Below, in pieces: positions 18,347 to 18,457 of a DNA stretch of 64,000 nt; position 1 is the first letter of the stretch, and each line of letters starts with the position of its first letter. A program made the position numbers and the translations under genes. The notes beneath the pieces are model-generated. The model saw only the letters and a list, made by a program, of their open reading frames with translations, had not been told where the DNA came from and did not search any database. Source of the stretch: Lama guanicoe (lineage: Eukaryota); assembly GCA_013239625.1 (NCBI GenBank), contig MU056277.1, positions 1,218,076 to 1,282,075 of the forward strand, given 5' to 3'.

Positions 18347-18457
18347 TGTGCGACATTCCTCTGTATGACATATGTGACTACAACGTCACCAGGGATCGCT
18401 GCAAGGAACTCGGGTGCTGCTTCTACAAAGGCGTCTGCTATGAGAAAGCGGTTCCCA
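18347..18457 (+). CDS. TEX29: TEX29 Cys-rich exon, [37 protein letters not shown]
   Basis: TTGCAG acceptor, GTAAGT donor at 18458. 111 nt, phase 1-1. Recognisable TEX29 peptide. Confidence 0.95.

Follow-up and report, generated by a model that had tools for sequence, protein, structure and literature searches.

Trefoil (P-type) domains hold six cysteines whose disulfides follow a 1-5, 2-4, 3-6 pattern. In the male germ line, papers citing its description (Nishimura et al. 2011) present TMEM190 as a trefoil-bearing protein of the sperm inner acrosomal membrane, and FMR1NB / NY-SAR-35 is described as a membrane protein of the testis that has a P-type domain (bioRxiv 670422; PMC5351105). On the egg side, the accessible part of a structural preprint describes that the fish ZP1 trefoil is devoid of both sugar-binding residues and keeps the TFF disulfides (bioRxiv 2023.06.21.544075). 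In the accessible sections of a mammalian trefoil survey, which used PF00088 only, TFF3 contacts its sugar via Asp20 and Trp47 (PMC7221086).

TEX29 has so far been little more than a name for a testis protein. The accessible text of a TEX gene review brings it up only for its low human-mouse identity (PMC8061069). A table in another paper, available in part, gives the acrosome/midpiece as the location of TEX29 and the inner acrosomal membrane as that of TMEM190, and lists both knockouts, that of TEX29 in the mouse, as fertile on second-hand evidence (PMC13588705). The available portion of a further paper cites the same TMEM190 work for infertility (PMC7824766), and these secondary sources are thus in conflict. 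In the paper listings and text passages searched, no link between TEX29 and a trefoil or P-type domain was found. Here we describe the TEX29 locus of the guanaco, whose six-cysteine module has, with high confidence, a predicted trefoil fold of a compact and non-canonical kind.

Results

The TEX29 gene and its six-cysteine exon

The window, i.e. the 64,000-nt stretch of Lama guanicoe contig MU056277.1 that was analysed (positions 1,218,076 to 1,282,075 of the forward strand, assembly GCA_013239625.1), carries TEX29 on its + strand as a model of five coding exons, 146 aa and phases 1, 1, 2, 1. An upstream non-coding exon (16663..16782, its 5' end provisional) is seen in an RNA contig that joins it to the exon at 16890 over a 107-nt GT..AG gap. 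The start-codon exon (16890..16984), whose RNA contigs span 16887-16984 in two of four runs, has its ATG at 16927, preceded by two in-frame TGA codons in the joined 5' region, and encodes residues 1-19, a hydrophilic leader. The six-cysteine trefoil-type exon (18347..18457; 111 nt, phase 1-1, residues 20-56 with the sequon at N32) is followed by a TM exon (24315..24384, phase 1-2) recognised by hydropathy, splice sites and a Pfam TEX29 match, and by a variable low-complexity tail exon, predicted to be cytoplasmic, that was set by its splice sites (25344..25504) and is consistent with the named camel record P0038 and with tblastn of P0121/P0122. The last coding exon with the stop (26369..26409) is inferred from a splice acceptor and the frame; it gives an acidic C-terminus as in other mammalian TEX29 proteins and different from that of P0038. 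Residues 1-73 of the model are identical to the named camel TEX29 record.

The initial annotation had described an exon at 18347..18457 with six spaced cysteines, phase 1-1 and a sequon, and splice sites, RNA and Pfam TEX29 all bear this out. In fact, an AG acceptor precedes 18347 and a GT donor follows 18457, and the model has cysteines C21, C29, C38, C43, C44 and C50 (C-x7-C-x8-C-x4-CC-x5-C), a single sequon (N32-V-T) and a single hydrophobic helix at ~57-79. RNA contigs, which come from a close relative rather than from the same sequence and were compared over 10000-19000 only, reach a depth of ~350-400 on the exon vs 13-16 in the next intron, and their loose ends at this exon lead to the upstream coding exon in three of four runs and to the TM exon in one of four. 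The exon scores 84 bits against Pfam TEX29 (PF15839; E 1e-23, cut-off 27 bits). It is the single locus above this cut-off in the guanaco genome, where a second TEX29 copy was not found. A loose six-cysteine pattern occurs at two places in the six frames of the window, the TEX29 exon and an unrelated one.

Some other features were observed around the gene. An upstream ATG at 16772 opens a six-codon ORF that runs across the first intron (16772-16899, +) with a TGA at 16897; it shares the frame of TEX29 and closes before the main ATG. Some rodent TEX29 models start at a comparable upstream Met and have no stop before the main ATG, which gives them a non-hydrophobic extension; in one RNA run the ATG at 16772 is apparently missing. 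Exons at 8383-8649 and 9560-9631 (+) correspond to the RhoGEF/SH3 portion of P0099, a hamster record in which this neighbouring gene, presumably ARHGEF7, is fused to TEX29, probably as a gene-model artefact. Residue 79, which closes the TM helix on its cytoplasmic side, is Cys in camelid TEX29 and Tyr in 91 of 113 records, so that camelid Cys79 is a possible candidate for palmitoylation.

Conservation of the cysteines and of the sequon

The exon search returned 118 homologue records, some of them gene-model variants or intron read-throughs, and the named ones are all therian. The exact cysteine spacing is present in 117 of them, and 113 of these 117 carry the sequon, with T (64) or S (53) as its third residue; this exchange is the pattern expected if glycosylation were under selection. 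When 1.84 billion representatives were searched with a profile, 79 proteins matched at E<=0.001. Ten of these were identified and all are tetrapod, eight named TEX29 and two uncharacterised (platypus, alligator, turtle, caecilian, ostrich, bearded dragon, newt, two frogs and cobra); neither TMEM190 nor a classical trefoil was present among the 22 of 79 matches inspected. Among the distant records, 19 of 20 keep the spacing and 18 of those 19, non-therian, keep the sequon; the TEX29 spacing extends from frogs to birds. The six cysteines are invariant across a 41-row tetrapod alignment. Because of this invariance and of the conservation of spacing (117/118) and sequon (113/117), the six-cysteine pattern is not a chance one.

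Similarity to trefoil domains by sequence

The initial annotation had proposed a trefoil-like domain with shortened loops and had suggested a check against the Pfam Trefoil profile. This check does list Trefoil, under the cut-off (16.6 vs 21 bits). In fact, TEX29 and Trefoil are the only Pfam families found with the exon alone at E<=10, and the PF00088 gathering score of 21 bits is reached neither by the exon nor by the best of 47 orthologues (20 bits). Trefoil is matched at E<=1 by 45 of the 47 orthologues, and Connexin is matched by 40 of the 47 full-length proteins at similar E-values; therefore, such E-values alone mean little. The Connexin matches cover the last part of the domain together with the TM region, and we discounted them. 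As a calibration, the TMEM190 exon (16 bits) and the FMR1NB-type exon (20.5 bits) also remain below the Pfam cut-off, and both proteins are described as trefoil-bearing in the parts of the literature available.

A genome-wide Trefoil search missed the TEX29 exon and listed chance-like places at 17.6-19.9 bits. One place, L014:1500-1611 (+), with C-x9-C-x4-CC-x5-C and then a stop, scores 19.9 bits, probably by chance, and serves to gauge the background. On the - strand of L012 (~1500-1611), the contig with glucosidase-type trefoils, there is a diverged trefoil-like match without Trp before C6.

We then kept the cysteines fixed and shuffled the other residues 1000 times, using reference trefoil exons from the guanaco genome that we take, by likeness, to be those of TFF1-3, GAA, ZP4 and FMR1NB. 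With the TEX29 HMM, none of the 1000 shuffles reached the scores of TFF1, TFF2 domain 1, TFF3, GAA or the ZP4-type domain, 12 reached that of TFF2 domain 2 and one that of TMEM190, and FMR1NB was no better than its shuffles (330/1000). In the reverse direction, with an HMM of six classical trefoils, nine of ten TEX29 domains were equalled by 0-9 of 1000 shuffles and one frog domain by 43, an eleventh domain being left out as a duplicate. Furthermore, hhalign gave TEX29 vs trefoil a probability of 88%, over a core of 17 columns only. The six cysteines align with those of the TFF, GAA, ZP4-type and FMR1NB domains, and the camelid ZP4-type exon is 39% identical to the TEX29 module in the alignment. 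PDB sequence searches returned nothing significant with the exon (porcine TFF2 at E 1.6) and only TM-driven channel matches with a full-length TEX29 profile. Taken from sequence, the shuffle tests in both directions and hhalign support a similarity between TEX29 and trefoils that goes beyond the cysteines. By homology, the predicted TEX29 disulfides are C21-C44, C29-C43 and C38-C50.

Exon phases point in the same direction. Extracellular modules commonly lie on phase 1-1 exons, and therefore a shared phase supports, without proving, a kinship with trefoils. Read by eye from splice motifs, the phase is also 1-1 in seven guanaco trefoil exons (four TFF domains, ZP4-type, FMR1NB-type and TMEM190). 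The GAA-type trefoil is embedded in a longer open frame, and several of the glucosidase-type matches come in pieces.

Predicted structure

The 40-residue region was modelled twice with AlphaFold (mean pLDDT 68 and 80); both models have a short helix plus a beta hairpin, and AlphaFold may draw on learned trefoil structures. For model 1, trefoils (ZP1, TFF3, GAA and TFF1) made up 6 of the 12 Foldseek rows and took ranks 1-4, with TMq 0.54-0.66, and the remaining six rows were small cysteine peptides at TMq 0.21-0.31. For model 2, the ZP1 trefoil came at ranks 1-2 (TMq 0.61 and 0.59) and TFF1 last (0.54), and the other 17 rows listed had TMq <=0.37. The ZP1 trefoil (8rki, 8bqu) was thus the best match of both models, with an rmsd of 1.6-2.3 A over 34-37 columns, and TFF1 was among the rows, with Foldseek E-values of 0.87 or worse throughout and none significant. 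VIA-align listed 8 and 11 rows, of which 4 in each case were chains that bear a trefoil; these tied with unrelated folds at Z-scores of only 2.0-3.3 (2.2-3.3 for the trefoil-bearing ones), and the top row for model 2 was a non-trefoil. In an Atlas structure search with the alligator TEX29 model (whole-protein pLDDT 0.53), row 1 was TEX29 and the other rows were TMEM190 (two), ZP4 (three), TFF2 and FMR1NB (two), at TM 0.65-0.71, and one viral protein; all the non-self rows lie under the family-naming bar of the service. An Atlas feature search had FMR1NB as the top matches of TEX29 (0.86 and 0.78), at the level of a lead only, and one on named clusters gave no usable match. Each of these structure searches is weak alone, and, as far as models can tell, they agree with each other and are consistent with a trefoil. 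The trefoil proposal thus stands on the shuffle tests, hhalign and the neighbours of the models, and falls short at the Pfam Trefoil cut-off.

Membrane topology and the N-terminus

Hydropathy gives one TM helix at ~57-79, in line with the membrane anchoring that had been claimed. The module was also claimed to be an ectodomain, and because the sequon is conserved it likely lies on the luminal side. A hydrophobic leader is encoded neither in the TEX29 model nor in the joined upstream exon; as judged from these sequences mammalian TEX29 is a protein without a signal peptide, a point that the initial annotation missed. Of 117 records, 75 have C1 at position 21, and the four from marsupials have it at 16. 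In seven distinct non-mammalian models, those of turtle, ostrich, bearded dragon and caecilian and of three further records, a hydrophobic stretch lies 47-51 residues ahead of C1 and a KR/RR pair 10-11 residues ahead of it, the same distance at which the eutherian K8-K9 pair is found; the hydrophobic stretch is absent at that place in the platypus, alligator, newt and frog models. A tblastn search of the window with the reptile, bird and caecilian leaders gave no remnant signal exon among the matches listed. We infer that an ancestral TEX29 may have had a signal peptide, perhaps with a processed pro-piece, that was lost in mammals, a comparison that relies on predicted gene models and whose pattern of loss is uncertain.

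Sugar-binding positions

TFF3 Asp20 and Trp47 align to the positions before C2 and before C6, respectively. None of 84 distinct TEX29 domains has D/N at the position before C2, where 79 have I/V, and none contains a Trp. The idea of a glycan-interacting module is weakened for the TFF type of binding because the Asp/Asn and the Trp are absent, both sugar-contacting residues being missing in 84 of 84 domains; by sequence, TEX29 does not look like a TFF-type lectin.

Relationship to TMEM190

The short last loop is common to TEX29 and the sperm trefoil protein TMEM190, a likeness that the initial annotation did not mention. This loop reads mostly CCYxxGVCY in TMEM190 and CCFxxGVCY in eutherian TEX29; non-mammalian TEX29 departs at the GV positions, and what the two proteins share at G[VI]CY is mostly eutherian. 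A TMEM190 HMM ranks TEX29 at the top of eight domains (18.3 bits; 3/1000 shuffles). The TEX29 HMM shows no preference for TMEM190 over GAA or ZP4. PF15431 (TMEM190) was not matched in the TEX29 protein scans, in part judged among the top 25 matches; the match in the reverse direction is weak (E 0.06), and hhalign gives 70% over 22 columns. Trees of 45-50 columns do not join TEX29 and TMEM190, and the AU test fails to reject a clade of both (p 0.16). Paralogy of the two proteins is plausible. In the Atlas cluster named 'Transmembrane protein 190', 20% of the members carry the Pfam TEX29 label too, a hint of cross-matching between both families.

Discussion

Our results favour, with reasonable but not strong confidence, that TEX29 is a single-pass germ-cell membrane protein with a minimal trefoil in the acrosomal lumen, a protein-binding function and a role overlapping that of TMEM190. 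The 30-residue six-cysteine module would fold as a minimal trefoil (P-type) domain, and TEX29 would insert N-out/C-in without a signal peptide (type III), N32 would be glycosylated and the module would face the acrosomal lumen. After acrosome exocytosis the ectodomain would be exposed, and the module may serve protein binding or scaffolding rather than acting as a TFF-type lectin. Redundancy with TMEM190, and perhaps with FMR1NB, could explain the mild TEX29 knockout. The combination of a non-lectin role with redundancy with TMEM190 is put forward tentatively, at somewhat less than even chances.

Several other explanations were considered. TEX29 could instead insert N-in, its cytosolic cysteines binding metal or being palmitoylated; this would fit with the missing hydrophobic leader and with a charge bias that is modest in the camel record (two K/R before the TM helix, four K/R plus four D/E after it), but we regard it as improbable, given that the sequon is conserved across tetrapods, that seven distinct non-mammalian models carry signal-like leaders and that mouse TEX29 has a phosphosite in its tail according to the portion of the source available. 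Furthermore, signal-less N-out (type III) proteins are known, BCMA and glycophorin C among them in the accessible part of PMC9496750. Even less probable, and to be taken as very improbable, is that the unit is a look-alike, such as that of a Shisa-like/STMC6 single-TM adaptor of the WBP1 type. Six cysteines ahead of one TM helix, a platypus TEX29 that matches Pfam WBP-1 at E 0.0026 and Trefoil scores under the cut-off would agree with this identity. However, the cysteine exons of camel WBP1 and WBP1L end in CC-x4-CC and do not outscore their shuffles with the TEX29 HMM (385 and 888 of 1000) or with the trefoil HMM (666 and 964), and the structural neighbours of TEX29 are trefoil proteins. WBP1 and VOPP1 bind WW domains via PPxY, as stated in the available part of PMC6125347, and PPxY is absent from the tails of 27 TEX29 proteins, the one LPxY match lying in the ectodomain of a short record. 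We have rejected the Shisa-like/STMC6 identity, as TEX29 has neither the CC..CC ending nor the PPxY tail.

The trefoil could also be a lectin with a remodelled site that binds glycans of the zona or of the acrosomal matrix. Lectin activity has been proposed for other mammalian trefoil clades in the accessible sections of PMC7221086, and TEX29 retains the aromatics Y26, Y31, F45, Y46 and Y51, as well as an acidic residue (D or E) two places before C2 in 70 of 84 domains. This seems unlikely to us, though less so than the two previous explanations, because D/N is never found before C2 nor Trp anywhere in the 84 domains, and because loop 3, the Trp-bearing one, is shortened from 10 to 5 residues. 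Moreover, an N32 glycan would occupy loop 2, and both sugar-binding residues are also absent from the fish ZP1 trefoil, which matches best by structure.

Coming back to the minimal, protein-binding trefoil, a wider and quite speculative proposal, which we consider unlikely as a whole, is that TEX29, TMEM190 and FMR1NB form an unrecognised and redundant male germ-line trefoil group, the sperm-side counterparts of ZP1/ZP4, in which TEX29 has lost its signal peptide. The ancestral TEX29 would have been a signal-peptide protein processed at the dibasic site, and the mammalian one, signal-less, would start just before the old cut site. If this were true, knocking out the genes together would bring out a function in the acrosome or in gamete contact that is masked in single knockouts. 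The apparent loss of the signal peptide in mammals would in itself be a natural switch from type I to type III. The redundancy of TEX29 and TMEM190 concerns two acrosomal proteins whose single knockouts have been reported as fertile; the TMEM190 knockout study itself reportedly found fertility. Pfam-based trefoil surveys omit TEX29 because its Trefoil score is below the PF00088 cut-off, and with the data presented here a testis protein known by name only gains a fold, a membrane side and a short list of relatives. This gain is a modest one, given that the phenotype is mild and that the fold may already figure in automatic superfamily annotation.

Among the known trefoil systems, TFF1-3 (PF00088) share with TEX29 the six-cysteine order, the C-x4-CC core and the phase 1-1 exon, and with the TEX29 model the short helix plus beta hairpin. 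However, they are secreted divalent lectins for GlcNAc-alpha-1,4-Gal with an Asp/Asn plus a Trp, and TEX29 is membrane-anchored by the TM helix at ~57-79 and has no leader. The TFF loops are of ~x9/x9/x4/x10 and those of TEX29 of x7/x8/x4/x5, the C1-C6 span being 30 residues in TEX29 (the shortest of nine domains compared) and 38 in TFF3. FMR1NB is, like TEX29, a male germ-line membrane protein with a trefoil on a 1-1 exon before a TM helix, but it has two TM helices, full-length loops (x10/x10/x4/x10) and meiotic expression, and against the TEX29 HMM its sequence carries no signal beyond the cysteines; a clear candidate for its TM exon was not found within 19.4 kb. The ZP1/ZP4 trefoil, the best Foldseek match, also lacks the TFF sugar residues; it is part of a large secreted egg-coat protein and its loops are x10/x9/x4/x8. 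TMEM190, the first non-self Atlas structural neighbour, has like TEX29 one trefoil-type module, one TM helix and a variable tail, a last loop of CC-x5-C (98 of 101 TMEM190 records) followed by Y, a 1-1 trefoil exon and then a 1-2 TM exon, no TFF sugar residue at either position, a Pfam Trefoil score below the cut-off (16 bits) and an acrosomal location. It differs from TEX29 in its hydrophobic N-terminal leader and in its longer loops 1 and 2 (x9 and x11 vs x7 and x8), and the conserved sequon sets TEX29 apart from it. All in all, the closest likeness of TEX29 is to TMEM190 of sperm and to the domain of ZP1/ZP4.
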